Virus record (IMG/VR): IMGVR_UViG_3300012016_000001
Span: 1 to 64,000 of that record
Origin: a virus
Lineage: Duplodnaviria > Heunggongvirae > Uroviricota > Caudoviricetes
DNA length: 64,000 nt
Reading direction: 5' to 3' (one strand)
The position numbers were made by a program, and so were the translations under genes. The notes beneath the pieces were generated by a model that was not told the DNA's origin, did no database searches, and saw only the letters and a list, made by a program, of their open reading frames with translations. Numbering within the stretch: position 1 is the stretch's first letter; each line of letters opens with the position of its first letter. This document shows positions 3,994 through 29,189 of this stretch, piece by piece.

Positions 3994-3997
3994 CATA

Positions 3998-4065: not shown

Positions 4066-4070
4066 ATTTT

Positions 4071-4146: not shown

Positions 4147-4203
4147 CTAAATCAAAACTAATGAGTCTCTAAAGTATTTTTAAACAATTAAAGTGTAACC
4201 TGT

Positions 4204-4461: not shown

Positions 4462-4472
4462 ATGGGTAATAC

Positions 4473-4543: not shown

Positions 4544-4576
4544 CAATCACTAAAGGGAAAAGAAACTGTAGTTTAT

Positions 4577-4647
4577 GGGCAATTGTCCGAGCGATTAGGT
4601 GGCGGACTGCAAATCCGTCTAGACAGGTTTGACTCCTGTATTGCCTT
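4577..4647 (+). tRNA. tRNA-Cys(GCA)
   Basis: Acceptor GGGCAAT/ATTGCCT, anticodon arm GCGGA-CTGCAAA-TCCGT, T-arm ACAGG-TTTGACT-CCTGT. Confidence 0.75.
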
Positions 4648-4685
4648 CATCAAATGATGTTGATTTTTTGCATATTAATGACTTT

Positions 4686-4713
4686 AGTGTCTGGTTCGTG
4701 AGAATAGGACACT
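4686..4713 (+). ncRNA. conserved-loop hairpin H1 (loop TGGTTCGTGAGAATAG), 9 nt upstream of a tRNA
   Basis: Stem AGTGTC/GACACT. The loop is shared with H2-H4 while the stems differ. Confidence 0.5.
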
Positions 4714-4721
4714 TTTTACAT

Positions 4722-4793
4722 CGCAGGGTAGAGCAGTGGTAGCTCGCAAGTTTCATAAGCTTGAAGTCGTTAGTTCGAATCTAACCCCTGCAA
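4722..4793 (+). tRNA. initiator-like tRNA-fMet(CAT)
   Basis: CGCAGGG..CCCTGCA gives a C1-A72 mismatch as in bacterial tRNA-fMet, and overall similarity to E. coli tRNA-fMet in the acceptor and D-arm. The anticodon stem CAAGT/GCTTG lacks the three G-C pairs. Confidence 0.75.
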
Positions 4794-4799
4794 CAAATT

Positions 4800-4883
4800 G
4801 GGAGTTTATTCCGTAAGTGGTAGCGGGGCTGACTGTAAATCAGCTTGCTTTTGCATCGGGGTGTTCGACTCACTCAGCTCCCA
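4800..4883 (+). tRNA. tRNA-Tyr(GTA), long variable arm
   Basis: Acceptor GGGAGTT/AGCTCCC, anticodon arm GCTGA-CTGTAAA-TCAGC, long variable arm, T-arm GGGTG-TTCGACT-CACTC. Confidence 0.8.
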
Positions 4884-4887
4884 CTTT

Positions 4888-4959
4888 GGCCTTATAGTTC
4901 TAATGGTAAAACACCGCACTTGTAATGCGGATTTCTCAGTTCGATTCTGGGTAGGGCCT
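4888..4959 (+). tRNA. tRNA-Thr(TGT)
   Basis: Acceptor GGCCTTA/TAGGGCC, anticodon arm CCGCA-CTTGTAA-TGCGG, T-arm CTCAG-TTCGATT-CTGGG. Confidence 0.8.
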
Positions 4960-5027
4960 CTATGCATCGGCTTAGGACTGTTGCGTTACGCTTCCTCATG
5001 GTGATACCTTTAAGGTAGAGGAAGAAA

Positions 5028-5086
5028 GGAGTACACACAGCAATGTTTTTATACAGTTATGATATTGCAGAGTTGTTTTGTACTCC
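5028..5086 (+). ncRNA. CAGCAA-box long-range-helix element, copy E3
   Basis: GGAGTACA (5028-5035) pairs with TGTACTCC (5079-5086). CAGCAA at 5038-5043. Confidence 0.5.
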
Positions 5087-5090
5087 GTAT

Positions 5091-5116
5091 GAGGTTGGCT
5101 TTGTCCAACCTCTTTT
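5091..5116 (+). terminator. terminator-like hairpin abutting the next tRNA
   Basis: GAGGTTGG (5091-5098) pairs with CCAACCTC (5105-5112), followed by TTTT. It could instead be a processing hairpin. Confidence 0.4.
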
Positions 5117-5205
5117 GCCCTCATCGTATATCGGTCAGTGCTGGAAACAGACGATTACCCCTGCCTTTTAAGCAGGTAAGCATGGTTCGACTCCATGTGG
5201 GGGCA
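5117..5205 (+). tRNA. tRNA-Lys(TTT) with about 17-nt expansion of the D-arm (89 nt)
   Basis: Acceptor GCCCTCA/TGGGGGC, anticodon arm CCTGC-CTTTTAA-GCAGG, T-arm CATGG-TTCGACT-CCATG. The D region is GTA-T-ATCG...CTG-GAAA-CAG...CGAT-TAC, an extended helix carrying a GAAA-capped hairpin. Confidence 0.6.
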
Positions 5206-5244
5206 CTATAAAAATCAAGACAATAAAAGTAGTTTTTAAGAAAT

Positions 5245-5376
5245 AAAGAAGTCTTACAGCAATAACAATTAATCTAAGTTTACCAAAAAGCGCTGAACTT
5301 GTAGTTCAATGGTAGAATACCTTTTTATTAAAAAGGAGATGACGGTTCGAATCCGTGTGGCAAAAAAGACTTCTTT
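5245..5376 (+). ncRNA. CAGCAA-box element, copy E4, enclosing a tRNA-like core without a conventional acceptor stem
   Basis: AAAGAAGTCTT (5245-5255) pairs with AAGACTTCTTT (5366-5376). CAGCAA at 5257-5262. Inside are a D-arm GTTC-AATGGTA-GAAT, the hairpin CCTTT-TTATTAA-AAAGG, and a T-arm ACGG-TTCGAAT-CCGT. Confidence 0.5.
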
Positions 5377-5379
5377 TAT

Positions 5380-5452
5380 AGAGCTATCCTCTAATAGGTT
5401 AGGAGACGTGACTGATAATCACGCAATCCCAGTTCAAGTCTGGGTAGCTCTA
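5380..5452 (+). tRNA. tRNA-Ile(GAT)
   Basis: Acceptor AGAGCTA/TAGCTCT, anticodon arm CGTGA-CTGATAA-TCACG, T-arm CCCAG-TTCAAGT-CTGGG. Confidence 0.85.
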
Positions 5453-5526
5453 CAATCGTCCAAACAAAAAGTAATACAAACAAACATTTATCAAACTAAA
5501 CATTCAGCAAAACACAATAAGAATAT

Positions 5527-5550
5527 TTCTGCTTAGGCAGAAGTGTTTTT
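5527..5550 (+). terminator. small rho-independent terminator-like hairpin
   Basis: TTCTGC-ttag-GCAGAA followed by GTGTTTTT. Confidence 0.45.
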
Positions 5551-5558
5551 AGTGTAAA

Positions 5559-5595
5559 CTCCTGGAGTACGTGTACTCTGGGAGGGTTTTGTTTT
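5559..5595 (+). terminator. rho-independent terminator
   Basis: 12-bp stem CTCCTGGAGTAC/GTACTCTGGGAG (with G-U pairs) followed by GGTTTTGTTTT. Confidence 0.65.
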
Positions 5596-5601
5596 GGACT
5601 C

Positions 5602-5631
5602 AGCCTCATCTAGTTGCAAATAGGTGAGGCT
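5602..5631 (+). ncRNA. conserved-loop hairpin H4 (loop TCTAGTTGCAAATAGG), 4 nt upstream of a tRNA
   Basis: Stem AGCCTCA/TGAGGCT. The loop is related to those of H1-H3. Confidence 0.4.
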
Positions 5632-5634
5632 TTA

Positions 5635-5709
5635 GGGGCAGTAGCGCAGGTGGTCAGTTCGCGCCAGTCTGAAAAACTGGAGATCGTGGTTCAACTCCAC
5701 GCTGCCCCA
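5635..5709 (+). tRNA. tRNA-Phe(GAA)
   Basis: Acceptor GGGGCAG/CTGCCCC, D-stem GCGC/GCGC, anticodon arm CCAGT-CTGAAAA-ACTGG, T-arm CGTGG-TTCAACT-CCACG. Confidence 0.85.
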
Positions 5710-5729
5710 CAGAATAGTATATTACTATA

Positions 5730-5798
5730 AAGAGGGCTCACAGCAAATTCATTCTAATTTTTTTCGCCATTATAAGTTTGATTAGCTAAAGCCCTCTT
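5730..5798 (+). ncRNA. CAGCAA-box long-range-helix element, copy E5
   Basis: AAGAGGGCT (5730-5738) pairs with AGCCCTCTT (5790-5798). CAGCAA at 5741-5746. Confidence 0.5.
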
Positions 5799-5805
5799 AA
5801 ATATA

Positions 5806-5869
5806 CAGGGTACAGACAGCAAACTTTATTTTAGGTTCGAACTTTTAACTCGATGTGTCTAGTACCCTG
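5806..5869 (+). ncRNA. CAGCAA-box long-range-helix element, copy E6
   Basis: CAGGGTAC (5806-5813) pairs with GTACCCTG (5862-5869), extended by AGAC/GTCT across a 1-nt bulge. CAGCAA at 5817-5822. Confidence 0.5.
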
Positions 5870-5874
5870 CCTAT

Positions 5875-5947
5875 AAAGGAGTCCTACAGCAAATTTGTCT
5901 TACATTCCGAATTGTCATTTCAGAAGAAAAAGAAAATGGACTCCTTT
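5875..5947 (+). ncRNA. CAGCAA-box long-range-helix element, copy E7
   Basis: AAAGGAGTCC (5875-5884) pairs with GGACTCCTTT (5938-5947). CAGCAA at 5887-5892. Confidence 0.55.
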
Positions 5948-5979
5948 TTAAATGAATAACCAATTATAAAATATATTAA

Positions 5980-6043
5980 GGAGGGCATGCAGCAAAAAGT
6001 TTGTAAATAGCGTGTCTGTGTAACATACTTAACAGTGCCCTCC
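5980..6043 (+). ncRNA. CAGCAA-box long-range-helix element, copy E8
   Basis: GGAGGGCA (5980-5987) pairs with TGCCCTCC (6036-6043). CAGCAA at 5990-5995. Confidence 0.5.
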
Positions 6044-6081
6044 GTTTTTATGAAAATGTTTTAACTATTTAAATAGTAACT

Positions 6082-6876
6082 ATGCAAAAATTAAATGTTT
6101 TATTAGCTCTTAGAGAGAAGTTAGCTAATCGTTATGCCCAAATGAACGGTGACTATACTTCATTCTTTAAGAACAAGCAAGGAGCGTTTCAAGGTACGCT
6201 CAAGACACACTCTCCTTTAGATGGGTATGCAGTAGATTCTACTAAAGTAGCTAATGTGAGAGTTATTACCACAGTCAATGAAAAAATGGATTGGTGGTTG
6301 AAAGAAGCTCTAGACTATTTTAACACAGCTTTGGCTATTGAAGCATCTAATGGGCAAGGTGCTCCTACAGTTGAACTAGAATTCGATGGAAGAACTTACG
6401 GTCCTTTCCCAGCTACTGTGTTATTAAGGCTTCGTGGCATTATAGAGAACGATAAGTTCGCTACAATGCTTGGTAATATTCCTGTTAGAGAGGAGACCAA
6501 AGTTTGGTTGCCTATTGATCAGGATGAAGATTACAAGAGAAGAGGTAATATCTTCCAAACAGAAAGACAAGAAGGTGAGACTCGTACTACAGAAACACAT
6601 GATGAAATCTTGAAAGATCCTAACTTAGATCCAGCTCATCTTCCTTCTAATTACCGTGCTCAAGTAACTCAAGTTAAGAGAACAGTTAAGACTGGAGATT
6701 ATACTACTCAGTCATTTACTGGTGAATGGACACATCAGCAACGTGCTAATCTTTTAAAAAGAAGAAGTGCATTGCTCGATGCTATCAATGTTGCCTTACA
6801 AAAAGTCAATGACCGTGAGGCAATTGAGTGTAAAGTAGATGATCTATTCAGACATCTCATTTATGGACAAAATTAA
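6082..6876 (+). CDS. hypothetical protein embedded in the tRNA array
   Basis: 264-aa ORF with no recognised motif. Confidence 0.55.
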   Translation: MQKLNVLLALREKLANRYAQMNGDYTSFFKNKQGAFQGTLKTHSPLDGYAVDSTKVANVRVITTVNEKMDWWLKEALDYFNTALAIEASNGQGAPTVELEFDGRTYGPFPATVLLRLRGIIENDKFATMLGNIPVREETKVWLPIDQDEDYKRRGNIFQTERQEGETRTTETHDEILKDPNLDPAHLPSNYRAQVTQVKRTVKTGDYTTQSFTGEWTHQQRANLLKRRSALLDAINVALQKVNDREAIECKVDDLFRHLIYGQN

Positions 6877-7010
6877 ACTTTAAATATTGACCCTAGCTTT
6901 AGCTTCACACTTTAGCTTTACAGAATCCTAGATAGTAAGCATCAATGTTGTGGTCAAAAGCTTTAGCGAAGTTGATTACAGTGTATTACTTACCTTGACG
7001 ACTATTATCG

Positions 7011-7154
7011 CTCGGTAATCGCGGGTTCAAATCCCGTCCCGCCCTCAAACAGAGTTCTTCTGAACTCTGCCCTTTCATGTTACTTTAGTCATTGCTTGTG
7101 AAAGTAGTGACTATATGGGCGGGTCGTCTAGTGGTTAAGACTCCGGGTTTTTAA
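7011..7154 (+). tRNA. circularly permuted tRNA-Lys(UUU)-like gene: 3' half (7011-7045) lies upstream of the 5' half (7117-7154)
   Basis: The 3' half is CTCGG-TAATC-GCGGG-TTCAAAT-CCCGT-CCCGCCC-T. The 5' half is GGGCGGG-TC-GTCT-AGTGGTTA-AGAC-T-CCGGG-TTTTTAA. Acceptor and anticodon stems are complementary only between the two halves. Neither half has a partner in the normal gene order. Confidence 0.55.
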
Positions 7155-7228
7155 GCATCAGCATTATAGGGTAAAATGTAATACGCAAAAGTTCATGGAT
7201 TAGTAAGACGGATTTGTCGCTAATCCTA

Positions 7229-7301
7229 GGGAGAGTAGCTCAGTGGTTAAAGCAATAGTCGCTAAAACTATCGATCGAGGGTTCGAATCCCTCCTCTCCT
7301 G
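7229..7301 (+). tRNA. amber-suppressor tRNA, anticodon CTA (reads UAG), with G at position 33
   Basis: A 73-nt canonical cloverleaf: acceptor GGGAGAG/CTCTCCT, anticodon arm ATAGT-CGCTAAA-ACTAT, T-arm GAGGG-TTCGAAT-CCCTC. Confidence 0.75.
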
Positions 7302-7364
7302 CTTATGTTACCATATTATATTATTTTTTCGTTAGTATCTGTCTGTGAAGATCGATACTAAGTC

Positions 7365-7459
7365 AGCGGGTTATGCAAATGGTAAAGCAGTAGTTTATCT
7401 ATGTGAGTACGTATAGTTCTAGGCCAGTACTCTTGGGAGTTCGAGTCTCTCACCCGCTA
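7365..7459 (+). tRNA. 95-nt tRNA-like gene, anticodon undetermined
   Basis: Perfect acceptor AGCGGGT/ACCCGCT, D-arm TGC-AAATGGTAAA-GCA, T-arm GGGAG-TTCGAGT-CTCTC. The 44-nt central region has no canonical 5-7-5 anticodon arm. Its best helices are GAGTAC/GTACTC and CTATG-(8 nt)-TATAG. Confidence 0.4.
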
Positions 7460-7498
7460 CAAATTAATTTAAAACAAATTGGGTAAAAAATAACCTAT

Positions 7499-7646
7499 AA
7501 AGGAGACGAACAGCAATTTCAACGTTTTGCATTTTGGTTGCCGAAGTTAGGGTTCGAATCCCTAGTCCTCCCTAATGGGAGGATTAGTGTAACTGGTAAG
7601 TGTGAAGTTAAGCACACGATAGCACGCGTTTTTGTTGGTCTCCTTT
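7499..7646 (+). ncRNA. CAGCAA-box element, copy E9, enclosing tRNA-Ser-like pieces in permuted order
   Basis: AAAGGAGAC (7499-7507) pairs with GTCTCCTTT (7638-7646). CAGCAA at 7511-7516. Inside, the T-arm TAGGG-TTCGAAT-CCCTA and GTCCTCC are followed after 6 nt by GGAGGAT, the same acceptor as the tRNA-Ser at 7851. Confidence 0.45.
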
Positions 7647-7850
7647 TAAAATATTTTCCCTCTTAAAGGTTTTGCTAGGAATCTAGCTTATCAGGGTATG
7701 CTCTAAGCTCTTAGTTACGGTGCACACGTTCTGAGTTTGAGTAGTGTATTATAAGTTCACCCATAACTGCAGATAAAAGTGAATGAAATTTACACGTCCT
7801 TAGGATTACTAAGAGGGATAAGGGAGAGATTTATTAATCTCTCCCCGAAT

Positions 7851-7940
7851 GGAGGATTAAGCCTAATTGCTAAGGCAGCGGTCTTGAAAACCGCCAGTAG
7901 TCGGTAAAACGACGTGTGGGTTGGAGTCCCACATCCTCCT
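7851..7940 (+). tRNA. tRNA-Ser(TGA), long variable arm
   Basis: Acceptor GGAGGAT/ATCCTCC, anticodon arm GCGGT-CTTGAAA-ACCGC, long variable arm, T-arm GTGGG-TTGGAGT-CCCAC. Confidence 0.85.
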
Positions 7941-7942
7941 CT

Positions 7943-8233
7943 ATGAGTAAATGTAAGACAAGTAAATGTAATGCAGCATGTTGTTACAACATCTGCTTTA
8001 AAGAGAATGAGCTTGAACGATTTTCTGTACGTATTGTAAATCCTGTTATAGATACTATTCCACTTCCTTGGGGAACTATGGCTAAAACTAATGAGAATAT
8101 GGATTTAAATAAATGTCCATTTCTTAGAAAGGATTTAAAGTGCAATATATACGAAAATCGTCCAGAGGTGTGTAGGTTGATGGGAGTTATTCCTAAGATG
8201 CCATGTAAGTATTTAAAGGAGAGTAAACCTTGA
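7943..8233 (+). CDS. YkgJ-like CxxCxxCC zinc/iron-chelating domain protein
   Basis: Motifs KCNAACCY and CPFL..KCNIYENRPEVCR. ATG at 7943; the track ORF N-terminus (7916) overlaps the tRNA-Ser. Confidence 0.6.
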   Translation: MSKCKTSKCNAACCYNICFKENELERFSVRIVNPVIDTIPLPWGTMAKTNENMDLNKCPFLRKDLKCNIYENRPEVCRLMGVIPKMPCKYLKESKP

Positions 8234-8303
8234 GGGTGATAGGGGCTGTTTGCTAAACAGTACGCTCGCTTCGGCGGGTGCGGATCGAGACCGCTGCTCT
8301 CCT
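8218..8303 (+). tRNA. tRNA-Ser(GCT), long variable arm; overlaps the last 16 nt of the upstream CDS
   Basis: Acceptor GGAGAGT/GCTCTCC, anticodon arm GCTGT-TTGCTAA-ACAGT, variable arm containing CGC-TTCG-GCG, T-arm TGCGG-ATCGAGA-CCGCT (49-65 mismatch). Confidence 0.65.
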
Positions 8304-8328
8304 CGCTAACTTTTAACAATTAAAGTGT

Positions 8329-8445
8329 ATGGAAGATTTAAATTACAAGTATGAAAAACCTGATAAACCAATTCAGGTTAATGTTCCAAGTAAACCACGA
8401 TTTAAAGTCAACCAAGAAGGTGGCGACACGCGTTGGTATACATGA
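8329..8445 (+). CDS. possible 38-aa ORF (coding status doubtful)
   Basis: ATG directly after the repeated 15-mer AACAATTAAAGTGTA. The region downstream looks structured rather than coding. Confidence 0.2.
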   Translation: MEDLNYKYEKPDKPIQVNVPSKPRFKVNQEGGDTRWYT

Positions 8446-8669
8446 ACTCCGACCATCCACAATGTCGTAAACTTAGGTGGCGTAGGAAAAGAAACTACTT
8501 TCCTGTTAGGTACGAGAACCTAATTTAGCTTTGTCAGTTTCGCTGAGGAAGAAACGACTATGTGACCTAGTCAGAAAATTAGGCAGAACTGTGGACGCAC
8601 AGCGAATAGAAGGTGGGTAAGATTGCGACTTGAGAACTCTATATGTCTTATAAACCTGCCTTCTCTTTA

Positions 8670-8743
8670 GGGCCTCTAGCACAATAGGTTAGTGCAACAG
8701 ACTCATAATCTGTAGGTTCCGAGTTCAAGCCTCGGGGGGCCCA
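8670..8743 (+). tRNA. tRNA-Met(CAT), either elongator or tRNA-Ile2 type
   Basis: Acceptor GGGCCTC/GGGGCCC, D-stem GCAC/GTGC, anticodon arm ACAGA-CTCATAA-TCTGT, T-arm CCGAG-TTCAAGC-CTCGG. Confidence 0.85.
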
Positions 8744-8759
8744 CTAAACACCTTTAAAT

Positions 8760-9554
8760 ATGAAATTAATAAGTAAAGAACGGACTGGCGGAAATCCAGC
8801 TATTGAAATTGAAATGGACAAGGTGGATAACCTAAGAGTTTTAGATATTATCCATTCTTTGGTTGATGCTCAAGGTAGAATCTATCCAATACCATTCTCC
8901 TTTATAAAGAATGATAATGAGGATACCTTGAACGTGGTAATGCAAGTGTTAGGTTTGTATACCTTTCCAACTCTTGAACTAACTGAATGGTTAGAAGAAC
9001 AAATAGATGAATACACTGAAGGTTACGAGCCTGCTATAGAAATATGTGCAGGAAGTGGATGGATAGGTAGACAACTTCAAATACCTACTACTGATGCCAA
9101 AATCCAAGAAGATCCTAAAGTGCGGAATCTATATTTAATGAGTAGTCAAATTCCTATGATATATCAGGATGATGTTGAAAAGATAGAAGCTCTTGAGGCA
9201 GTTAAAAAGTATAATCCTGAATATGTAATAGGTAGCTACGTTACTTCTACTGAAAGAATTAAGAAAAATAATAAAAGAAAGACTATCTATTTAAATATAC
9301 CTTTACCAAGCGGAGGATTTATAAAACAAAATATGATGGAGCTTGCAGAAAAGGAGATTCCGTTTTTTGGAGTTAATGTTCAAGCTATAATAAGGAGAGT
9401 GCATAAGACTTTCTTAGTTATAAATGAAAGAACCCATTATAACGAATCTTACTTGAGTATGCCACATAAGTCATATAAGTTTCCTTGGCTTGTAACTAGA
9501 GGTGATATTAAAAAAGGTCGTGTTTTAATATATGAGAACAAAGGATGGACTTGA
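8760..9554 (+). CDS. hypothetical protein, possible SAM-dependent methyltransferase fold
   Basis: AIEICAGSGWIG resembles methyltransferase motif I (weak). Confidence 0.45.
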   Translation: MKLISKERTGGNPAIEIEMDKVDNLRVLDIIHSLVDAQGRIYPIPFSFIKNDNEDTLNVVMQVLGLYTFPTLELTEWLEEQIDEYTEGYEPAIEICAGSGWIGRQLQIPTTDAKIQEDPKVRNLYLMSSQIPMIYQDDVEKIEALEAVKKYNPEYVIGSYVTSTERIKKNNKRKTIYLNIPLPSGGFIKQNMMELAEKEIPFFGVNVQAIIRRVHKTFLVINERTHYNESYLSMPHKSYKFPWLVTRGDIKKGRVLIYENKGWT

Positions 9555-9775
9555 AGTTTAGACGTTGCAAATGTTCACTTTCTCCAAAGGATATGGTTTT
9601 TACTTTTAAAACTCCAGTTAAACTCTGCGAGTATGAAGGTAAACAGTATATCATTATGGGGAGATTGAAAGAAACAAATAGAGAAAGTAAGAAATTATTA
9701 GAATTTCTATTTGGAGACGAAATTGTGTATACAAAACAATTAATATTAGTTCCAAGAGATTTCTTTTTCATCTAA
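9545..9775 (+). CDS. hypothetical protein
   Basis: 76-aa ORF overlapping the upstream stop by 10 nt. Confidence 0.4.
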   Translation: MDLKFRRCKCSLSPKDMVFTFKTPVKLCEYEGKQYIIMGRLKETNRESKKLLEFLFGDEIVYTKQLILVPRDFFFI

Positions 9776-9834
9776 GGGAGATGTGTCAGCAATTATTAAC
9801 TTTCTTATTGGTTTTAGTTTTTGGTTAGTCTCCC
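9776..9834 (+). ncRNA. CAGCAA-box long-range-helix element, copy E10
   Basis: GGGAGA (9776-9781) pairs with TCTCCC (9829-9834). CAGCAA at 9787-9792. Confidence 0.4.
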
Positions 9835-9841
9835 GTAACCT

Positions 9842-9879
9842 GGGGATAGGGTAAATGTTTACCCTTCCCCTATAATTTT
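9842..9879 (+). terminator. terminator-like hairpin
   Basis: GGGGATAGGGTAA pairs with TTACCCTTCCCC (one bulge), followed by tataatttt. Confidence 0.45.
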
Positions 9880-9886
9880 CTTAATA

Positions 9887-10696
9887 ATGTTAAATTTTGG
9901 TTTAAAACATTGTCATTCTTCTAATTGGCACAAGAAGTTTCCAAGAAAGAAGATTGAACATGAGGACCCAAAGCATCTAGGGATGCATCAACACCTTAGA
10001 CTACGTAATGAGTGGTTTGAGGGAAGACAAGGTTTTCTTTCCATTAAAGAGATTCGTAAGTTCTTGGAAGCAAATCTTGGTAAGAATGTAGATGAAGTAT
10101 TCTCTGAATTTGTTAAACGTGCTAAAAGATATAAGCATGATGTTAGTCTTAGAGAAAGATTCTTTGCACAGTTAGACCCAGACACTAGGTATGGTTCTGG
10201 TTATACTTTAGATATACAAAACAAAATAGTAAAGGTTAAAGAAATTAAAGTTCACAGGATACGTGACAACGAAGCTCGTGTATTTAATGAAGTAGCTTAT
10301 CCTTATAATATTAATCAGTATTTAAGAGAAACGGAACTTACTTATATAGGAGATTTTTATCTAAGAACTAGACATTGGAATTGGGTAAAAGCACCTGTGT
10401 ATGTATGTAGTAAGGAATGGTATAACTTAGTACTGACATATGGAGTAGGCAAGAAATATACTAAAATGAATGAAATGCAAAGGATACATATATTCTTTAA
10501 TAAGTATATTGCTGTAGGAGTTCCAAAGAAAGGATATGCTACTCGTGCTGAACCTACTGGTAATACTATATGTATCTGTAATCACGAAATGCGAGAGTAT
10601 AAACACGTTAAGTATCCATATACAACAATGGATTGCGAGTCTGATTATATCTTCCTTACTAAGGGAGGAGAAGATACTAATTGGTACGTATATTAA
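9887..10696 (+). CDS. hypothetical protein
   Basis: 269-aa ORF. Confidence 0.55.
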   Translation: MLNFGLKHCHSSNWHKKFPRKKIEHEDPKHLGMHQHLRLRNEWFEGRQGFLSIKEIRKFLEANLGKNVDEVFSEFVKRAKRYKHDVSLRERFFAQLDPDTRYGSGYTLDIQNKIVKVKEIKVHRIRDNEARVFNEVAYPYNINQYLRETELTYIGDFYLRTRHWNWVKAPVYVCSKEWYNLVLTYGVGKKYTKMNEMQRIHIFFNKYIAVGVPKKGYATRAEPTGNTICICNHEMREYKHVKYPYTTMDCESDYIFLTKGGEDTNWYVY

Positions 10697-10704
10697 ATAG
10701 ATTA

Positions 10705-11063
10705 GGGCCTGACCGGATTTGACGGCTTCTGAAGGTAAATCACTCACTCATGACTGATGGAAAGACATCAAAAAAATTAAACGGAGAAAATAACACAACT
10801 CCCCGCGCTAAAGTTGTTAGCATCGTTTATAGAGCTGCAGCTTGATCGACGCCTGGTAAAAGGGTAACCAAGGAACATAATACCCTTAATTTCTTTATTT
10901 TTAGCCAATAATATTCTGCGCCTATCGGAGATATAACTAAATAGGCTGGTGGAAAGTCAGACAACAGTCTGCCCCAGAGAAGGAAACTCTTATAAAACCT
11001 ATGAGTGTAAGAATGTGATGAGAATAGGATTCGCGGACGAGGGTTCGACTCCCTCCAGGTCCA
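10705..11063 (+). ncRNA. ssrA: tmRNA (SsrA), one-piece
   Basis: The 5' end GGGCCTGACCGGATTTGACGG and the 3' end GGACGAGGGTTCGACTCCCTCCAGGTCCA closely resemble bacterial tmRNA termini. Acceptor GGGCCTG/CAGGTCC has a G3:U70 pair. Internal tag ORF at 10783-10845. Confidence 0.88.
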
Positions 11064-11317
11064 CTTGTTAAATAATGTTAAATTTATTGTGGATTTATAT
11101 TGTTATTTATATATTTAATCCTGTAAAAACGTTCATTATAGTAAAGATAAAATGTTCCAGCACTCACGGCTACAAACTGAGTGACTAGTGTTCAACAAGA
11201 GCGCAGTATTACTATCACAGCTGAACTATAGAGGCAGTGAAGACTTTATGGTCGAACTGAGGGCAGTTTAGTCTGGAACAATCTAAGCTGTTCTCTTTAC
11301 TTGTGAAATTCATAAAT

Positions 11318-11345
11318 ACCTTTCGGTTCGTGAGAATAGAAAGGT
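11318..11345 (+). ncRNA. conserved-loop hairpin H2 (loop GGTTCGTGAGAATA), 4 nt upstream of a tRNA
   Basis: Stem ACCTTTC/GAAAGGT. The loop core is identical to H1. Confidence 0.5.
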
Positions 11346-11348
11346 TAT

Positions 11349-11421
11349 GGCGGAATGATGTTTAATGGTAGCATGCTACTTTTGGGAAGTAGTCGAGTCG
11401 GTTCGAGTCCGGTTTCTGCCA
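11349..11421 (+). tRNA. tRNA-Pro(TGG)
   Basis: Acceptor GGCGGAA/TTCTGCC, anticodon arm CTACT-TTTGGGA-AGTAG, T-loop TTCGAGT. Confidence 0.8.
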
Positions 11422-11429
11422 CTATTGTT

Positions 11430-11502
11430 GCAACGTTAGTGTTAATGGTTAGCAAGAGGCCTTGCCAAGGCTTAAGAGTGAGTTCGAATCTCATACGCTG
11501 CT
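11430..11502 (+). tRNA. tRNA-Gly(GCC)
   Basis: Acceptor GCAACGT/ACGCTGC (one A-C mismatch), anticodon arm AGGCC-TTGCCAA-GGCTT, T-arm GTGAG-TTCGAAT-CTCAT. Confidence 0.75.
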
Positions 11503-11646
11503 CTCCACCGTCGAAATGGCTGAGACGTTAAGTAATTGCCAGACAGATACCCTTACTAAAGCAACAAGGGCGTGAATTATAGGTAACCAACGAGAAGAGA
11601 ACCTTTTGAAAGAGCCCCAACCCTAAGTGGAACTGGGTGGGGACCT

Positions 11647-11717
11647 GCGGGATTCGTTCAATGGTAGGACACTAGCCTTCCAAGCCTGTGATGTCGGTTC
11701 GATTCCGGTATCCCGCA
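11647..11717 (+). tRNA. tRNA-Gly(TCC) with a weak anticodon stem
   Basis: Acceptor GCGGGAT/ATCCCGC, loop CTTCCAA. The stem CTAGC/GCCTG has two central mismatches. Confidence 0.6.
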
Positions 11718-11887
11718 CCTACAGACTATTATTGCTGCAGAAGTAATAGTATCGAAGCAGCCCATACCCTCCGTCCGGCTGGGAGAAATCGTTCGTTCCG
11801 TACCTGAGCACCGAGGTATCTGTAGAAGCGTTAGTTAGAGTTACCTATGAGGGACGAGATGCCCTGTTGAAACTCGAAGGTGTACAT

Positions 11888-11961
11888 GGTGTAGATGGCC
11901 GAGTGGTTTAGGCGCAAGTTTGTGGCACTTGTTTACGCAGGTTCGAATCCTGTTCTACACC
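11888..11961 (+). tRNA. tRNA-His(GTG) with a G-1:C73 pair
   Basis: G-1 plus acceptor GTGTAGA/TCTACAC plus C73. Anticodon arm CAAGT-TTGTGGC-ACTTG, T-arm GCAGG-TTCGAAT-CCTGT. Confidence 0.85.
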
Positions 11962-11979
11962 CAATTAAATATTTTAATT

Positions 11980-12183
11980 ATGAAAGAAAGAATAAGAAAG
12001 ATTATTGAAAGAATTACTGAACGTAAAATTACAAATGATGATGAGCCTATAGAGATGGATAGTATAGACACTATGGAAGTTATAGTAAGTCTAGAGTATG
12101 AATATGACATCCATATAGATACTATTATAAAGGAGGATTTATCATTAAATGATTACGTTGAGTTAGTTAGGAGCATGGTGTAA
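11980..12183 (+). CDS. acyl carrier protein-like small protein
   Basis: 67 aa with EMDSIDTMEVIVSLEYEY, which matches the ACP DSLD phosphopantetheine-site helix. The track ORF N-terminus overlaps tRNA-His. Confidence 0.55.
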   Translation: MKERIRKIIERITERKITNDDEPIEMDSIDTMEVIVSLEYEYDIHIDTIIKEDLSLNDYVELVRSMV

Positions 12184-12252
12184 TGGTAGCACATCTGACT
12201 TTGACTCAGAAGGGAGCGTGAGCCACTGCAGGTTCGAGTCCTGCTGCTCCTA
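12169..12252 (+). tRNA. tRNA-Gln(TTG) with a 17-nt variable region; overlaps the last 15 nt of the ACP-like CDS
   Basis: Acceptor AGGAGCA/TGCTCCT, anticodon arm TCTGA-CTTTGAC-TCAGA, variable region AGGGAGCGTGAGCCACT (GC-GTGA-GC mini-hairpin), T-arm GCAGG-TTCGAGT-CCTGC. Confidence 0.7.
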
Positions 12253-12290
12253 CTTGTCTCCATTAAGGAGAATTTTAAAGGTGTTTGTTC

Positions 12291-12320
12291 AACTCACTGG
12301 TTTGCGAAAATAGGTGAGTT
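12291..12320 (+). ncRNA. conserved-loop hairpin H3 (loop TGGTTTGCGAAAATAG), 6 nt upstream of a tRNA
   Basis: Stem AACTCAC/GTGAGTT. Confidence 0.5.
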
Positions 12321-12325
12321 TAAAT

Positions 12326-12410
12326 GCTGCGTTCGACTAGTGGCTTAGGTCACAAGACTTTCAATCTTGTAGGATGAAAATCCTCAGGGGTTCGAATCCC
12401 CTACGCAGTA
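12326..12410 (+). tRNA. tRNA-Glu(TTC) with a 16-nt variable arm
   Basis: Acceptor GCTGCGT/ACGCAGT, anticodon arm CAAGA-CTTTCAA-TCTTG, variable arm T-AGGAT-GAAA-ATCCT-C, T-arm AGGGG-TTCGAAT-CCCCT. Confidence 0.75.
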
Positions 12411-12414
12411 CTAA

Positions 12415-12488
12415 GGGAGCTTAGTTCAGTGGTTTAGAACACTGCCCCTACAAGGCAGGAGTCGATAGTTCGAATCTATCAGTTCCCA
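12415..12488 (+). tRNA. tRNA-Val(TAC) with C at position 33
   Basis: Acceptor GGGAGCT/AGTTCCC, anticodon arm CTGCC-CCTACAA-GGCAG, T-arm GATAG-TTCGAAT-CTATC. Confidence 0.8.
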
Positions 12489-12515
12489 CGACAACTTTGT
12501 AAATCAACTGGGAAA

Positions 12516-23842: not shown

Positions 23843-25132
23843 ATGCGGAGTGGGACAGATGATTTGTTTGTAATAGCTGATAGAACAGCACGACAAGAAG
23901 AATGTAGAAGAAAATGGATACAACATAAATGTGTTGGAACTATAGTTGCAGCAACTGGCTTTGGTAAAACCAGAGTTGGAATGAACTGCATAGAAACTAT
24001 AGTAAAGCATTATCCTAACTTCCGTTGTTTAGTAGTAGTTCCTACAGACACACTACAGAAACAATGGAAGAGTCAACTAGATGAAAAAGGTTTAGGTCTT
24101 AACTGTGATGTATTAGTAATAAACACAGCTGTAAAAGAGAAAAGGCAATATCATTTAGTTGTTCTGGATGAAGTACATAGATATGCTAGTGATGTATTTT
24201 CTCAAATATTTAAGCAAGTGGGATTTAAATACATTTTAGGTTTAACTGCAACCTTTGAAAGACTAGATGGAAAGGAAATATTACTATCCAAACATTGTCC
24301 TGTAATAGATTCTATTACTTTGCAGGATGCTATAATGAATGGATGGGTATCTCCTTTTACAGAGTATGAGGTGCTTTTACAAGTAGATAATATAGAAGAA
24401 TATGAACTCCTTAATAAGGAATTCACTGAACACTTTGAATTCTTCAATTTTGATTTTAATTTAGCTATGCTCATGGTTGGTAAAGATGGATGGAAGAATC
24501 GACAGGCGTATCGTGATAAAATATGCCCTAAAGATGCTTCAGCCTCAGACAAAAAATTCCTTTTGTCTAATATAACATATCACGCAATGGGATTTATGAG
24601 GACCATACAAGCCAGAAAGAAATTTATAAATGAGCATCCTAAAAAGATTGAAATTGCTAATAAGATTATTGAAGCAAGAATGGATAAGAAAATAGTTACT
24701 TTTTCAAAGAAAGTATCTATGGCTGAACAGATAAAATATGGTGAAGTATATACAGGAAAAACTTCTAAGAAAAGGAGTGCTACAGTACTTGAAGACTTCA
24801 ACCAATATGCTACAGGAGTACTCAATACTTGTGAAAAAGTAAATGAAGGACTTGATGTACATGGTTTATCTGTCGCTATCATCCTAGGACTAGATTCGGC
24901 ACACCTTAAGGCTATTCAAAGAGTAGGAAGAGTAATTAGACATGAAGCCGGAAAGAAAGCGGAAATATTTAATCTTATCATTGACAAGACTGTTGAAACA
25001 AAGTGGTTTAGTACTTCCCATCCCGAAGGGAGTTATAAAGTCATAGATGAACAAGGACTAGAAAAAGTGTTAAGAGGAGAAGATCCTGGAGAATATGTCA
25101 GACCAGCAACTAAATTCGTATTTAGGTTCTAA
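23843..25132 (+). CDS. superfamily 2 DEAD/DEAH-box helicase
   Basis: Walker A ATGFGKT, motif II LDEVH, later helicase motifs (TATF, QRVGRVIR). Confidence 0.75.
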   Translation: MRSGTDDLFVIADRTARQEECRRKWIQHKCVGTIVAATGFGKTRVGMNCIETIVKHYPNFRCLVVVPTDTLQKQWKSQLDEKGLGLNCDVLVINTAVKEKRQYHLVVLDEVHRYASDVFSQIFKQVGFKYILGLTATFERLDGKEILLSKHCPVIDSITLQDAIMNGWVSPFTEYEVLLQVDNIEEYELLNKEFTEHFEFFNFDFNLAMLMVGKDGWKNRQAYRDKICPKDASASDKKFLLSNITYHAMGFMRTIQARKKFINEHPKKIEIANKIIEARMDKKIVTFSKKVSMAEQIKYGEVYTGKTSKKRSATVLEDFNQYATGVLNTCEKVNEGLDVHGLSVAIILGLDSAHLKAIQRVGRVIRHEAGKKAEIFNLIIDKTVETKWFSTSHPEGSYKVIDEQGLEKVLRGEDPGEYVRPATKFVFRF

Positions 25133-25480: not shown

Positions 25481-25534
25481 TACATCTTTTACAGTAAGAG
25501 ATTAGAACTTCAAAAATCTTAATCTTGAACTGTT

Positions 25535-26152
25535 TTGAATAAATATAACTTAAACATTGATGAGGAGATAGCTATGCTAGAGAAGTATCAGCTAACTCCT
25601 AATGAACTTTTTGTAGTTAGATTGATACTGGTTACCAAAGAAGGTTATCCAGAAAATTATCTCTTTAAGTTTCTTCAAATTAATGATTGTAAGGAAGGTT
25701 TTAGACCAACTTTAGTATCTCTTCAGAACAAAGGAGTAATTCTAAAGAGTTATAAGATTCCTGATAAAGGACAATCTTTTGACCCAGCTGCTATACCTTT
25801 TAGTAAGAACTTTGAAACTGCTTTATATAGGTCAGCTTTTGATATGGGTCAAGAACTCTACGAAGCATATCCAATGTTTGCAGAGATACAAGGTGCTACA
25901 GTTTCTATAAGAGGAATATCTAAAAAGTTTAATACTCTTGAAGATGCTTTTCGTTATTATGGAAAACAAATTAGATGGAATCAAGATACGCACAAGCATA
26001 TTCTTGAACTTCTAGATTGGGCACAAAACAATACTTCTTTCATTAACTTCTCTCTTGCTACATTTTTAGTAGATAGGAAATGGGAAGAGATAGAAGCTTT
26101 GAAGAATGGAGATATTACCAATGTAAACTATAACTCTATGCGCTCCATATGA
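25535..26152 (+). CDS. hypothetical protein (upstream of the replicative helicase)
   Basis: 205-aa ORF with a TTG start or an ATG at 25574. Confidence 0.5.
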   Translation: MNKYNLNIDEEIAMLEKYQLTPNELFVVRLILVTKEGYPENYLFKFLQINDCKEGFRPTLVSLQNKGVILKSYKIPDKGQSFDPAAIPFSKNFETALYRSAFDMGQELYEAYPMFAEIQGATVSIRGISKKFNTLEDAFRYYGKQIRWNQDTHKHILELLDWAQNNTSFINFSLATFLVDRKWEEIEALKNGDITNVNYNSMRSI

Positions 26153-26298
26153 TTACCGAATCAGTATTGGAGTTGATTAAAAGAGGACGTGAAGGGCATA
26201 ACCAAGGTATATCTATAGGTATGCCTAAGTTAGAAAGCATAATAGATGGACTTACTAGGTCTACCTATTATCTACTCTTTGGAGGCACTGGTAGTGGT
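26149..26298 (+). CDS. DnaB-like replicative helicase, exon 1
   Basis: ATGA overlap with the upstream gene. The reading frame ends LLFGGTGSGK-R-stop, so it breaks inside the Walker A loop. Confidence 0.65.
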
Positions 26299-27551
26299 AA
26301 ACGTTAAAATTTCTTAAGGACTGGTTTTGATGATTCATATTTTCTATATTAGTTATAATAAAATTATAACAATATGGAAATTAATGAAAAAATTGAAACT
26401 GGAGTCAAAATGTACCTGAATGGTGATGGCACATTAACACAATTACAGAGTATACTTGGAATTAGTAAAGATTTAATAGTAGCTAGATTAAAGGAATTAG
26501 GATATACAATTAAAAGAGGCTATAAACTATCTACAGTAATAGGGTTAAAGGCTGCTACTGAAGAATATTTAGCTAATTATAATAATAATCCTAGTTTGAC
26601 TCAAATAGCTGCTAAACATGGAATAAAAAGACAAACTCTTTCTTCACACGTTAAAGAATTAGGTTATGAAGTTATTAATCATCAAGATAGATTGAAATTT
26701 GATAACACTATATTTGATAGCATTGATACAGAAGAAAAGGCTTATTGGTTAGGATTTATATTTGCAGATGGATATGTAAGTGATAATAATGATTTTGAAG
26801 TATCTTTAAGTATTAAAGATTTTACTCACTTAAATTTATTGCATTTATTTATGAAGACTGAAAAGCCTGTCGGATTTAATGAGACTAGATGTAGACTATG
26901 TGTGAGAGATACTCACTTAGTAAATACTCTTAAGTCTTATGGTTGTATACCAAGAAAATCCTTAGTCTTAGAATTTCCAGAAGAAAAAATCTTTAAAGAT
27001 ATTAAACTTATAAGACATTTTATAAGAGGATTTGTTGATGGGGATGGATGCATTACTTACATCAATAAGGAACATACAAAGCCTCAACTCTCTATTTTAG
27101 GAACAGAGCAATTTCTAAATAAACTTCAGGAGTATTTACCTATTGATTTTATACATCAATTAGGATATAATAATAAATCTAAGAGTTTAGTAACTAGAGT
27201 TTTATCCTTTAATGGAAGTACTGCTTACAATGTTTGTAAGTTTCTATATCAAAATTCTAAAGTGTACCTAGATAGAAAATATGAGAAATTTTTAGAAATT
27301 TGCCGTTCAGAGGAGGAATCTTCTGAATTATTACTGGGCAAAAACGGTGAAGGCTGTGATGCTCCCGCCGTGGTAAATTCAGAAATTGCGAAAGGTTCTG
27401 AATCACCGTACAGCGTAGAGAGTGAATAAATATAATCTCTCCAAGAGTGCCTGGCACCCCAACTGAAATAAGTGGGTGAAAACGTACGCGGGACTTAAGC
27501 AAATAAGAAGCTTAAGAAACTAAGATAAAAAGCTTAGTGGTAACAAAATCG
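26299..27551 (+). mobile_element. group I intron carrying a LAGLIDADG homing endonuclease gene
   Basis: Splicing GGT|...tcG|AAG ACT ACC restores GGTGSGKTTF. The 5' exon ends in T and the intron ends in G. GC-rich paired segments occur near the ORF 3' end and downstream of it. Confidence 0.6.
26374..27429 (+). CDS. LAGLIDADG homing endonuclease (double motif) with N-terminal HTH-like repeats
   Basis: YWLGFIFADGYV and IRGFVDGDGCI motifs. Confidence 0.8.
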   Translation: MEINEKIETGVKMYLNGDGTLTQLQSILGISKDLIVARLKELGYTIKRGYKLSTVIGLKAATEEYLANYNNNPSLTQIAAKHGIKRQTLSSHVKELGYEVINHQDRLKFDNTIFDSIDTEEKAYWLGFIFADGYVSDNNDFEVSLSIKDFTHLNLLHLFMKTEKPVGFNETRCRLCVRDTHLVNTLKSYGCIPRKSLVLEFPEEKIFKDIKLIRHFIRGFVDGDGCITYINKEHTKPQLSILGTEQFLNKLQEYLPIDFIHQLGYNNKSKSLVTRVLSFNGSTAYNVCKFLYQNSKVYLDRKYEKFLEICRSEEESSELLLGKNGEGCDAPAVVNSEIAKGSESPYSVESE

Positions 27552-28490
27552 AAGACTACCTTTGCCTTATATTCCTTTATATATAGGCCTTTAGTCGAAA
27601 ATTTAGACAATGACGACTTTCGAGTCATATACTATTCATTAGAGATGTCTGCTGATATGTTGTTCTTAAAACTATTATGCATGCATATATGGGATGAATA
27701 TCATATTGAAGTATCTCCTAAAGAATTAATGTCTAGAAAGAAAAACTATATTCTTGATGAAGACCTATATAAAATAGTGCTAGAATGTCAACCTTGGCTA
27801 ACTAAAGTAGAACAGAAAATTACTGTCTATGATAGAGCATTAAATGCACAAGTTCTCTATGCTAATTTACATAGTGAATTAGAAAAAGAAGGAGAATTTA
27901 TCAATACTGATAAGCGTATCCTTTTTAAAGCAAAGAATCCAGATAAAATCATTCTTGTATGTATGGACCATATTGGTCTAGTTCGTCCAGGACAAGGATC
28001 TACTCTTAAAAATGAGATAGATTTATGTAGTAAGTATCTCTTAACCTTTAGAAACATATGTGGTATTAGTCCACTTGTTCTAATGCAAATCAATAGAGAT
28101 TCTACTTCTACTGATAGACGAAAACTAGATATGATTGACCTCAAGTTGAGTGATATCAAAGATAGTGGTAATCCATCTCAGGATGCTGAAGTTATTCTAG
28201 GTATTCTTTCTCCACATAGAGAGCAACTAAATAAGTACAGAAAATATGATATTACTCAACTAGAGGACAAGTTTAGAAGTATTTCTATTCTTAAATCTAG
28301 GTATGGTGAATCTGAAATACAAATTGGAAGTGCATTTTATGGTAAGGCTGGATTATTTAAGGAATTACCAAAGGGTGAGCAGATAACTTGTTATGACCCT
28401 TATATGGACGTTAGTTATATGTTGTCAGATGAAATTACACAAAATGAAAGAATAGATGAAAACGTAGTCAATTTTAATTTTACGATGTAA
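27552..28490 (+). CDS. DnaB-like replicative helicase, exon 2
   Basis: Continues KTTFALYSF...YYSLEMS...DHIGLV...QINRD, a RecA-like helicase core. Confidence 0.65.
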   Translation, partial: KTTFALYSFIYRPLVENLDNDDFRVIYYSLEMSADMLFLKLLCMHIWDEYHIEVSPKELMSRKKNYILDEDLYKIVLECQPWLTKVEQKITVYDRALNAQVLYANLHSELEKEGEFINTDKRILFKAKNPDKIILVCMDHIGLVRPGQGSTLKNEIDLCSKYLLTFRNICGISPLVLMQINRDSTSTDRRKLDMIDLKLSDIKDSGNPSQDAEVILGILSPHREQLNKYRKYDITQLEDKFRSISILKSRYGESEIQIGSAFYGKAGLFKELPKGEQITCYDPYMDVSYMLSDEITQNERIDENVVNFNFTM

Positions 28491-29189
28491 ATGGCTGAAT
28501 TAATCGCTATTGTTGGTGAATCTGGAAGTGGTAAGACCACTTCAATTAGAAATTTAAATCCAGAAGAGACATTTATTATTTCTACTACAGGTAAAAGACC
28601 TGGTATTAAAGGTGCTAAGAAAAAGTATCCAGATTTTAAGGTAGATAAAGAAACTAAGCAAATGAGTGGCAACTTTTATACTTCTTCAAACATCGACTCT
28701 ATAAAGCAGATGATGAAGATAGTTAATTTAAGAATGCCTAATGTTAAAGTTCTTATTATAGATGATTTTCAGTATTTGCAAGCGTTTGAGGCAATGGCTC
28801 GTGTAGACGAGAAAGGCTATGGTAAGTTTACTGACATGGCTAAACATGCTTATGAAGCGCTTAAGACTGGTATGGATATGAGAGATGACTTGTTCATTGT
28901 AGTATCCACTCATAGTGAAAATACTGGAGATAATCTAAATCCTTACTATAAGATTAAGACACAGGGCAAGATGTTGGATTCTGTGATTACTCTTGAGGGT
29001 CTTTTTACTTATGTATTCTTTACTAGAGTAGTTAATGATGATTCTGCTGGAGTTCAGTATAAATTTCTAACTAACTCAGATGGAACCTGCACAGCTAAAT
29101 CCCCGATGGGACTATTTGAAGATCTACTTATTGACAATGATTTAGATTATGTTATTAAGAAAATCACTGAATATAACGAAGGAGAATGA
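28491..29189 (+). CDS. AAA ATPase (AAA_24/Sak4-like)
   Basis: N-terminal Walker A IVGESGSGKTT and Walker B LIIDDF. Confidence 0.6.
   Translation: MAELIAIVGESGSGKTTSIRNLNPEETFIISTTGKRPGIKGAKKKYPDFKVDKETKQMSGNFYTSSNIDSIKQMMKIVNLRMPNVKVLIIDDFQYLQAFEAMARVDEKGYGKFTDMAKHAYEALKTGMDMRDDLFIVVSTHSENTGDNLNPYYKIKTQGKMLDSVITLEGLFTYVFFTRVVNDDSAGVQYKFLTNSDGTCTAKSPMGLFEDLLIDNDLDYVIKKITEYNEGE

Follow-up and report, generated by a model that had tools for sequence, protein, structure and literature searches.

The stretch of DNA analysed here, hereafter the window, comprises 64,000 nucleotides (nt; positions 1 to 64,000) of the IMG/VR record IMGVR_UViG_3300012016_000001, a virus of the Caudoviricetes, and contains a gene for a DnaB-like replicative helicase that is interrupted by a long insert. 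On the + strand, an open reading frame (ORF) at 26149-26307 is translated as MITES...LLFGGTGSGKR followed by a stop codon, and the GGT codon of its final glycine closes at 26298. A second ORF, at 27537-28490, reads MVTKS/KTTFALYSF... (a slash within a sequence in the text marks a junction); it has a GTG start codon of its own, carries the lysine codon AAG at 27552, and lies in a frame that differs from that of the first. Between these two exons lie the gene of a LAGLIDADG homing endonuclease and, in the last ~250 nt of the insert, the core of a ribozyme. As judged from the evidence set out below, the insert is very probably a functional mobile group I intron in the helicase gene. The coordinates of its parts are given in Table 1.

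The end of exon 1 is GGTAGTGGT, the start of exon 2 is AAGACTACC, and the ligated exons would read GGUAAGACU. When 26298 is joined to 27552, the gene encodes a protein of 362 amino acids (aa) in which the Walker A motif (P-loop), GGTGSGKTTF, is intact. This joined protein matches the Pfam domain DnaB_C with 65.6 bits (cutoff 27; 6e-18) over residues 20-305, and it matches PHROG 19, 'DnaB-like replicative helicase' (4e-27). It also matches solved helicases of the DnaB family, including 3BH0/3BGW, one chain of which was deposited as 'DnaB-like replicative helicase'; both the Pfam alignment and the alignment to the solved structures cross the junction. The N-terminal domain of DnaB in Pfam was not found in the 362-aa protein, so this is a short, phage-type DnaB-like helicase with the C-terminal RecA-like domain only. 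By its sequence, then, the host gene is a DnaB-family helicase that is split between the glycine and lysine codons of its Walker A motif. The start codon of the helicase overlaps the stop codon of an upstream ORF of 205 aa (ATGA, 26149-26152), and this overlap suggests a translational coupling of the two; the upstream ORF has no match in Pfam or PHROG.

The exact position of the junction is given by relatives of this phage in which the helicase gene is uninterrupted. A scan of IMG/VR with exon 2 found 12 loci at 90-95% aa identity, the longest of the contigs measuring 192 kb. Both exons are present in nine of these loci, where exon 1 (nt 1-150) directly abuts exon 2 (nt 1 onward), and the full 150 nt of exon 1 from the window match these relatives at 80-87% nt identity, stopping exactly at the junction. 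All nine intron-less alleles read ...GGT/AAGACT..., that is, YLLFGGTGSGKTTFALYSF, which encodes GGTGSGKTTF. The intron-less site of locus L005 is TTTGGAGGTACTGGTAGTGGTAAGACTACTTTTGCT, and the junctions of L005-L014 are candidate substrates for the endonuclease. The insert is thus present here and absent from the nearest relatives, and its removal at 26298/27552 recreates the natural uninterrupted gene. At the DNA level, the splice position retains an ambiguity of 2 nt because intron and exon 2 both start with AA; among the ambiguous positions, only 26298/27552 yields both a U·G pair in P1, the helix between the 5' splice site and the guide sequence, and a G at the end of the intron.

The initial annotation of this DNA, which was made from the sequence alone, had described a DnaB-like helicase broken inside its Walker A motif by an insert with a double-motif LAGLIDADG ORF; it had joined GGT (26298) to AAG (27552) so as to restore the P-loop, had noted U as the last nucleotide of the 5' exon and G as that of the intron, and had suggested a check for intron-less alleles in related phages. 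This account is borne out. The exon coordinates and their reading are confirmed, the terminal nucleotides being U26298 and G27551; the DnaB_C match spans the junction; the break separates the G codon from the K codon; the length of the insert is 1253 nt, and its ORF has both motifs and a Pfam match (see below); and the nine intron-less alleles that were found have precisely the proposed junction.

An insert at such a place might also be an intein, a group II intron or a translational bypass element. LAGLIDADG domains indeed occur in inteins too, and P-loops are favoured intein sites. However, the length of the insert is 3n + 2, exon 2 is in another frame, and a TAA codon stops translation just after exon 1; the length and the change of frame exclude an intein or any other in-frame insert. 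Moreover, the region contains no Hint domain, no reverse transcriptase and no Rfam match of any kind, group II models included. As for bypassing, the translational bypass of T4 gene 60 spans 50 nt, and the insert is ~25 times longer. Explanations of this type are extremely unlikely.

The ORF in the insert has the LAGLIDADG motifs YWLGFIFADG (aa 124-133) and FIRGFVDGDG (aa 216-225), in which D132, G133, D222 and G223-G225 do not vary among 12 homologues, each motif having an acidic residue at the catalytic position. Its product matches the Pfam domain LAGLIDADG_3 (PF14528) with 26.8 bits (cutoff 22.5) and PHROG 4645, 'endonuclease' (3e-53). A profile made from 12 sequences matches 2DCH, a solved homing endonuclease of archaeal origin, at 2.5e-5 over both motifs and I-DmoI weakly; a phmmer search of the PDB with the endonuclease alone gave no real match, and a single-sequence AlphaFold2 model had a mean pLDDT (predicted local distance difference test) of 39.5, too low for the predicted fold to be used. 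The N-terminal ~110 aa contain two helix-turn-helix-like repeats (weak match to Pfam HTH_28). A protein search with the endonuclease found 440 related stretches in IMG/VR. Some of the homologous genes contain in-frame stop codons, namely TAG in L020 and L085 and up to nine TGA in L029; judging by these codons, the intron ORFs of L020, L029, L085 and others (at ~2001-3050) would seem to be translated by the recoded genetic code that their phage uses.

The ribozyme core runs from P2 to P9.1 and includes a P3/P7 pseudoknot. When the region was searched by Megablast, matches were confined to positions 27368-27482 in the 3' part of the insert; they came from two Clostridium-group phages and from cr6_1, a crAss-like phage. 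The segment matched in phage vB_CpeS-1181 sits between the two halves of the large terminase gene. Because RF00028, the Rfam model for group I introns, matched nothing in the window, the structure was derived comparatively from an alignment (A2) of 26 distinct copies. With P7 and P1 added to the structure, pairs were then counted on a second alignment (A3) of 24 sequences that included the 5' splice sites, these being the introns for which both splice sites were placed by reading-frame restoration. RNAalifold independently gives the same nested helices, namely P2, P3, P4, P5, P6, P6a, P7.1, P8, P9 and P9.1.

In the 24 introns, 96.8% of the cells hold standard pairs, as compared with 74.4% in shuffled alignments and 33-44% when the partner is slid by 1-3 columns. 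Compensatory changes were found in 51 of the 67 pairs (mean of 35.9 in shuffled alignments), and the covariation score was 0.626 versus 0.195 for the shuffled and 0.07-0.12 for the slid controls; none of 500 shuffles equalled the observed covariation. P3 is an example: cr6_1 has UCGAGCA paired with UGUUCGA where the window has CUGGGCA paired with UGCCUGG. P7, which crosses P3 to make the pseudoknot, has a closing pair that varies between AU, CG and GC and a third pair that changes from G-C to A-U, and the pair G27413-C27489 beside the bulged A27412 is invariant in the 24 sequences. From this sequence pattern, P7 is presumed to be the guanosine-binding helix.

Two helices had been pointed out in the initial annotation. 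The first, TTCAGAA...TTCTGAA, stands and corresponds to P6a, but the second, GTGCC-t-GGCAC, had to be abandoned: a hairpin loop of 1 nt is impossible, the left half covaries with 27334-27340, and the supposed hairpin is made up of the 3' strand of P3 and, directly after it, the first nucleotides of P8. An early hand model, in which P4 was formed by ACGGUG and CACCGU, was also rejected; the members of the family covary with the nearer CCGU strand, and the CACC segment is P6. No second copy of the intron family was found within the window by nhmmer and tblastn. The exact pattern TGAATAAATATAAT-N5-CCAAGAGTG, when searched against viral contigs, was present at one locus only, L004, this pattern being too strict.

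Upstream of the endonuclease ORF, the first 75 nt of the intron contain no guide sequence. Immediately 5' of P2, a near-invariant UUGCCGU is present (27300-27306 in the window), and its GCC pairs with the GGU of the exon in 24 of 24 introns, with the U·G pair in every one. In the window, the wobble pair is U26298·G27302, and its neighbours are G-C, G-C and U·G. The nucleotides 5' of GCC pair with the intron from position +1 onward (UUU with AAA in the window), and this extension of P1 covaries, being UU with AA in L027, AGG with UCU in L057 and AGAGA with UUUCU in L064. The mean run of the extension is 3.17 base pairs (bp), as against 2.30 ± 0.19 for swapped partners, and no swap out of 5000 was as high.

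Since the guide is ~1 kb downstream of the 5' splice site, the whole endonuclease ORF lies in the loop of P1 and not in one of the peripheral loops of the core. In its last 131 nt, the ORF overlaps the core, beginning at the 3' strand of P1 and taking in the 5' strand of P7.1. Because these nucleotides are shared, endonuclease translation and ribozyme folding on one and the same RNA should exclude each other. The 3' ends of the homologous ORFs vary, as in L025, where the ORF ends in P2, and in cr6_1 (see below), and these differences suggest that the tail of the ORF is dispensable. A review has described such 'core creep' of ORFs into group I cores (PMC3073962), of which the overlap of 131 nt is an unusually large case. 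Likewise known, from bacterial and phage group I introns, is an in-frame stop shortly past the 5' splice site (PMC3073962); it occurs no more than 5 codons from the splice site in 16 of the 24 family members.

Several observations weigh against a functional group I intron. RF00028 has no match in the window, whether in 25500-29000 at E ≤ 1, in the 351-nt slice 27250-27600 at E ≤ 10 or in the whole window at the gathering score, and it has none in 3 GenBank and 14 IMG/VR related loci; the ORF-less copy of 306 nt at L007 is matched over the full length of the model, with 19.8 bits (E = 0.0065), which is below the gathering score of 50. The exon share of P1 is short (3-4 bp), and P10, in which the same nucleotides would pair with the 3' exon, is no better than chance, 1028 of 5000 swaps being as high. 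The ORF covers more than half of the core and could impair its folding. The structure was built in part from the sequence of the window and so has an advantage in the slid-partner control; neither the shuffles nor RNAalifold depend on this. Finally, splicing itself is something that we infer.

One explanation of such a state would be that the intron has decayed and no longer splices, the helicase then being a pseudogene or functionally replaced by another helicase; the failure of Rfam to match the window copy and the creep of the ORF into the core would both be in keeping with this. However, in the window all 67 modelled pairs are standard pairs, and the conserved single-stranded segments (AAA in J3/4, the A-run in J8/7 and the GRUAACA tail) match the family consensus. 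Moreover, the exons are intact, with neither frameshifts nor stops and with the close identity to uninterrupted relatives given above, and the endonuclease ORF is of full length with both catalytic motifs present. Decay is therefore improbable.

With respect to Rfam, the alignment of L007 to RF00028 puts P3, P4/P5, P8, the J8/7-P7 consensus and P9 where the comparative model has them. The curated threshold of Rfam would leave the element outside the group I introns, whereas the structural features by which the class is defined place it inside; the miss is a limit on the sensitivity of one general model rather than a failure of the structure. A search with the group I models of Rfam was among the checks proposed in the initial annotation, and its outcome, with the window copy unmatched even at E ≤ 10, would on its own have spoken wrongly against the intron.

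Another possibility is that the helicase, split by a free-standing homing endonuclease gene, is translated as two separate polypeptides that reassemble without any splicing of RNA, as in some split genes of T4-like phages. Indeed, exon 2 is preceded by its own GTG start, exon 1 has its own stop, and in cr6_1 the two halves are annotated in GenBank as separate coding sequences. However, the break falls between the G and the K of a single P-loop, the conserved and covarying group I RNA of 250 nt beside the ORF would be needless for a free-standing gene, and the copy at L007, which has no ORF, still interrupts a gene. The probability of this arrangement is very low.

If the insert is a functional group I intron, as is argued here, the helicase gene would be transcribed through it, and the ribosomes from exon 1 would halt at the TAA at 26305. 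The RNA would fold, and an external guanosine held in P7 would attack after U26298; the terminal G27551 would take the same site, and the exons would be ligated to GGU-AAG, which would encode GGTGSGKTTF and so give the 362-aa helicase. The LAGLIDADG enzyme would cut the intron-less alleles of co-infecting relatives near GGT/AAGACT, and repair would copy the intron into them (homing).

Table 1. Parts of the interrupted helicase gene and of its putative group I intron (positions in the window).
Feature	Position	Strand	Description and basis
Helicase exon 1	26149..26298	+	50 codons, last codon GGT; ends ...LLFGGTGSG; ORF list
Group I intron	26299..27551	+	1253 nt (3n + 2); 5' splice site after U26298, terminal G27551; covariation of the core
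In-frame TAA	26305..26307	+	Two codons past the 5' splice site; predicted to stop ribosomes from exon 1
LAGLIDADG homing endonuclease ORF	26374..27429	+	Double-motif, 351 aa; motifs at 26743-26772 and 27019-27048
Internal guide sequence (P1 3' strand)	27299..27305	+	UUUGCCG; pairs with U26295-G-G-U26298 and A26299-A26301
P2 hairpin	27306..27327	+	UUCAGAG with UUCUGAA; 7/7 pairs compensatory; RNAalifold agrees
P3 5' strand	27334..27340	+	CUGGGCA; pairs with 27448-27454; 7/7 pairs compensatory, 99.4% of cells paired; RNAalifold agrees
J3/4	27341-27343	+	AAA
P4-P6 domain	27344..27407	+	92-100% pairing per helix, compensatory changes in each; RNAalifold agrees
P4	27344-48/27367-71	+	
P5	27352-54/27361-63	+	
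P6	27372-74/27405-07	+	
P6a	27378-84/27396-402	+	
J6/7	between P6 and P7	+	GUA
P7 5' strand	27411..27417	+	C, bulged A27412, GCGUA; pairs with UACGCG 27485-27490; 100% of cells paired
P7.1 hairpin	27418..27441	+	GAGAG with CUCUC; 4/5 pairs compensatory; stop codon of the endonuclease in the loop; RNAalifold agrees
P3 3' strand	27448..27454	+	UGCCUGG
P8 hairpin	27455-27464/27471-27478	+	Covariation counts, RNAalifold
J8/7	27479-27484	+	AAAACG
P7 3' strand	27485-27490	+	UACGCG
P9	27494-500/27510-16	+	5/7 pairs compensatory
P9.1	27520-24/27533-37	+	5/5 pairs compensatory
3' tail	up to terminal G27551 (region 27494..27551)	+	UGGUAACAAAAUCG; GRUAACA...G conserved in all members
Helicase exon 2	27552..28490	+	312 codons, KTTFALYSF... 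through the stop codon; joined to exon 1 in relatives

The insertion sites of the family come from the 80 loci whose endonucleases matched best. Among the 24 introns, the 5' exon ends in GGT in every case and the 3' exon begins with AA in 20. The junction lies in a Walker A motif at G/K[ST] in 17 of the 24, with that of L036 being two codons earlier (G/SGKS). The hosts are DnaB-like helicases (the window, cr6_1, L017, L036 and L096), ResIII/SNF2 helicases (L007 and L027), PIF1/SF1 helicases (L025 and L079), AAA ATPases (L031 and L050), and AAA_24/Sak4-like (L064) and AAA_5 (L081) ATPases. The remaining seven junctions follow a GGT glycine codon, the hosts being an ATP-dependent DNA ligase (identified by Pfam) and four further proteins, two of which have no match in Pfam. 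Because the sites come from the 80 best endonuclease-matching loci, the bias towards Walker A may be partly an effect of sampling.

The same codon junction as in the window holds a homologous intron in the diverged helicases of cr6_1 and L017. Two further members, L024 and L026, stand outside the 24, only the 3' splice site lying within the locus; exon 2 of L024 starts with KSTSLRNLNP and resembles the Sak4-like ATPase of the window, and that of L026 starts with KSSLALYSYI and resembles DnaB-like helicases. In a close relative of this phage (IMGVR_UViG_3300037400_001724), the ORF-less intron (L007:502-807) splits GATGFG/KTRVG, and the orthologue of this ResIII/SNF2 helicase in the window (23843-25132) is uninterrupted. 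Unoccupied GGT/AAR sites at the G/K of a Walker A motif are found in the window at 23965/23966, 28532/28533 and 52794/52795. The site at 23965 carries a family intron in the relatives L007 and L027. The Sak4-like site at 28532 (GGAAGTGGT/AAGACC) has 11 nt, AGTGGT/AAGAC, in common with the helicase junction, and the equivalent site in L024 appears, to judge from the start of its exon 2, to be occupied by a family intron.

The same RNA core is present, unannotated, in GenBank in cr118_1, in a second cr6_1 copy, and in Prevotella Lak-A1, the cyanophage Lbo-JY46, the C. difficile phage phiCD211 and Staphylococcus ROSA-like phages (example spans are MK250015 453438-453704, PP438436 39103-39320, NC_029048 28613-28709 and AY954961 7653-7721). 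The range of the core thus covers phages of Bacteroidota, Firmicutes and cyanobacteria as well as Lak megaphages. In Lbo-JY46, which infects Leptolyngbya, the core adjoins a split DNA polymerase gene, and one phiCD211-like record labels the core as a 'terminator'.

The GCC of the guide never varies, and the intron itself contributes the remainder of P1 with its first nucleotides, so that GGU is all that would be needed from the exon. A tentative proposal, to which we would give not quite an even chance, is that these elements form one large P-loop-hopping lineage of phage group I introns, missed by the general Rfam model, which need only an exon GGU, move between unrelated genes and mainly colonise Walker A motifs at G/K[ST]. 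In open-access text, no description was found of the RNA structure of this lineage, of its fixed GCC guide and GGU-only need, or of its preference for Walker A, which is not proof of novelty.

With respect to the phage itself, the helicase of the window is closest in GenBank to helicases of the Crassvirales (23-28% aa identity), and the contigs of its near relatives measure 163-192 kb. According to Yutin et al. (2021, PMC7886860), group I introns and inteins reach an unprecedented density in crAss-like phages (145-192 kb) of the Delta and above all the Zeta group, the introns being detected via the protein domains of their endonucleases; a study of Zeta phages in 2025 makes the same point about intron density (PMC12386605). 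The window, which also carries 22 tRNA genes with an amber suppressor among them, is in keeping with this background. The element described here is like those introns in its type, in its LAGLIDADG gene and in splitting a conserved replication gene. It is an element of a crAss-like gut phage, real but ordinary and of an already known type; what goes beyond the work of Yutin et al. is the Walker A site in DnaB, the structure of the core and the arrangement of P1, which were established here.

In cr6_1 (NC_055894.1, Suoliviridae; L001 53334-55339), the split helicase is annotated as 'hypothetical protein', 'endonuclease (mobile intron protein)' and 'DNA helicase'. The junction there is GISGSG/KSSV, with flanks identical to those of the window (AGTGGT/AAGA), and the intron has a homologous core with compensatory differences and a LAGLIDADG enzyme. 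In contrast to the window, the endonuclease is of 246 aa and lacks the N-terminal helix-turn-helix region, P9 is larger, the ORF ends in P6a rather than in P7.1, and the host helicase is strongly diverged. A second RNA core lies in cr6_1 at 60263-60513, ~6 kb downstream, under another 'endonuclease'.

The td intron of T4 with I-TevI (subgroup IA2) resembles that of the window in interrupting a phage gene for DNA metabolism and in having a P7.1 hairpin, an in-frame stop past the 5' splice site and an ORF that enters the core (PMC3073962). However, the td ORF, for a GIY-YIG enzyme, is in the loop of P6 and shares 20 nt with the core, whereas the LAGLIDADG gene of the window is in the loop of P1 and has 131 nt in common with the core. 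The tRNA-fMet intron of Synechocystis PCC 6803 encodes the endonuclease I-Ssp6803I. Like the intron of the window, it has its ORF in P1, with an overlap of P1/P2 by 61 nt (Table 1 of PMC3073962). It differs in being located in a bacterial tRNA gene, in encoding a PD-(D/E)XK enzyme and in an overlap that stops at P2 and does not extend through P7.1.

Other features of the window concern translation. A gene for a transfer-messenger RNA (tmRNA) lies at 10705-11066 (Rfam RF00023, 68.4 bits; gathering score 47), for which ARAGORN gives the tag peptide GENNTTPRAKVVSIVYRAAA followed by a stop; a second phage contig with a tmRNA is that of L050 (227-562, 49.1 bits). The + strand carries a block of 22 tRNA genes at 2739-12489, among them an amber suppressor with the anticodon CTA at 7229-7302, labelled tRNA-Pyl by ARAGORN. 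The presence of this suppressor suggests that TAG is recoded in part of the genome, as has been described for crAss-like phages; the intron finding is unaffected since TAA is the stop codon of the helicase gene as well as of the endonuclease gene. Some of the tRNAs are unusually long for their type, namely Val-gac at 5117-5206 (90 nt), Gln at 12169-12253 and Glu at 12326-12411, and one is matched only partially by Rfam (5302-5357).

A first consequence of these results is that the helicase should be annotated as one protein of 362 aa and not as fragments of 52 aa and 317 aa, and the same holds for cr6_1. Since a standard Rfam screen would not flag an intron of this kind, similar split genes in gut-phage assemblies are probably mis-called. 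The patchy occurrence of the intron, which is present in this phage and absent from nine close relatives, would mark recent homing among co-infecting crAss-like phages. If the proposal of a P-loop-hopping lineage is true, the requirement for GGU only, together with the preference for Walker A, would be a concrete rule for how one lineage of introns spreads over essential ATPase genes.

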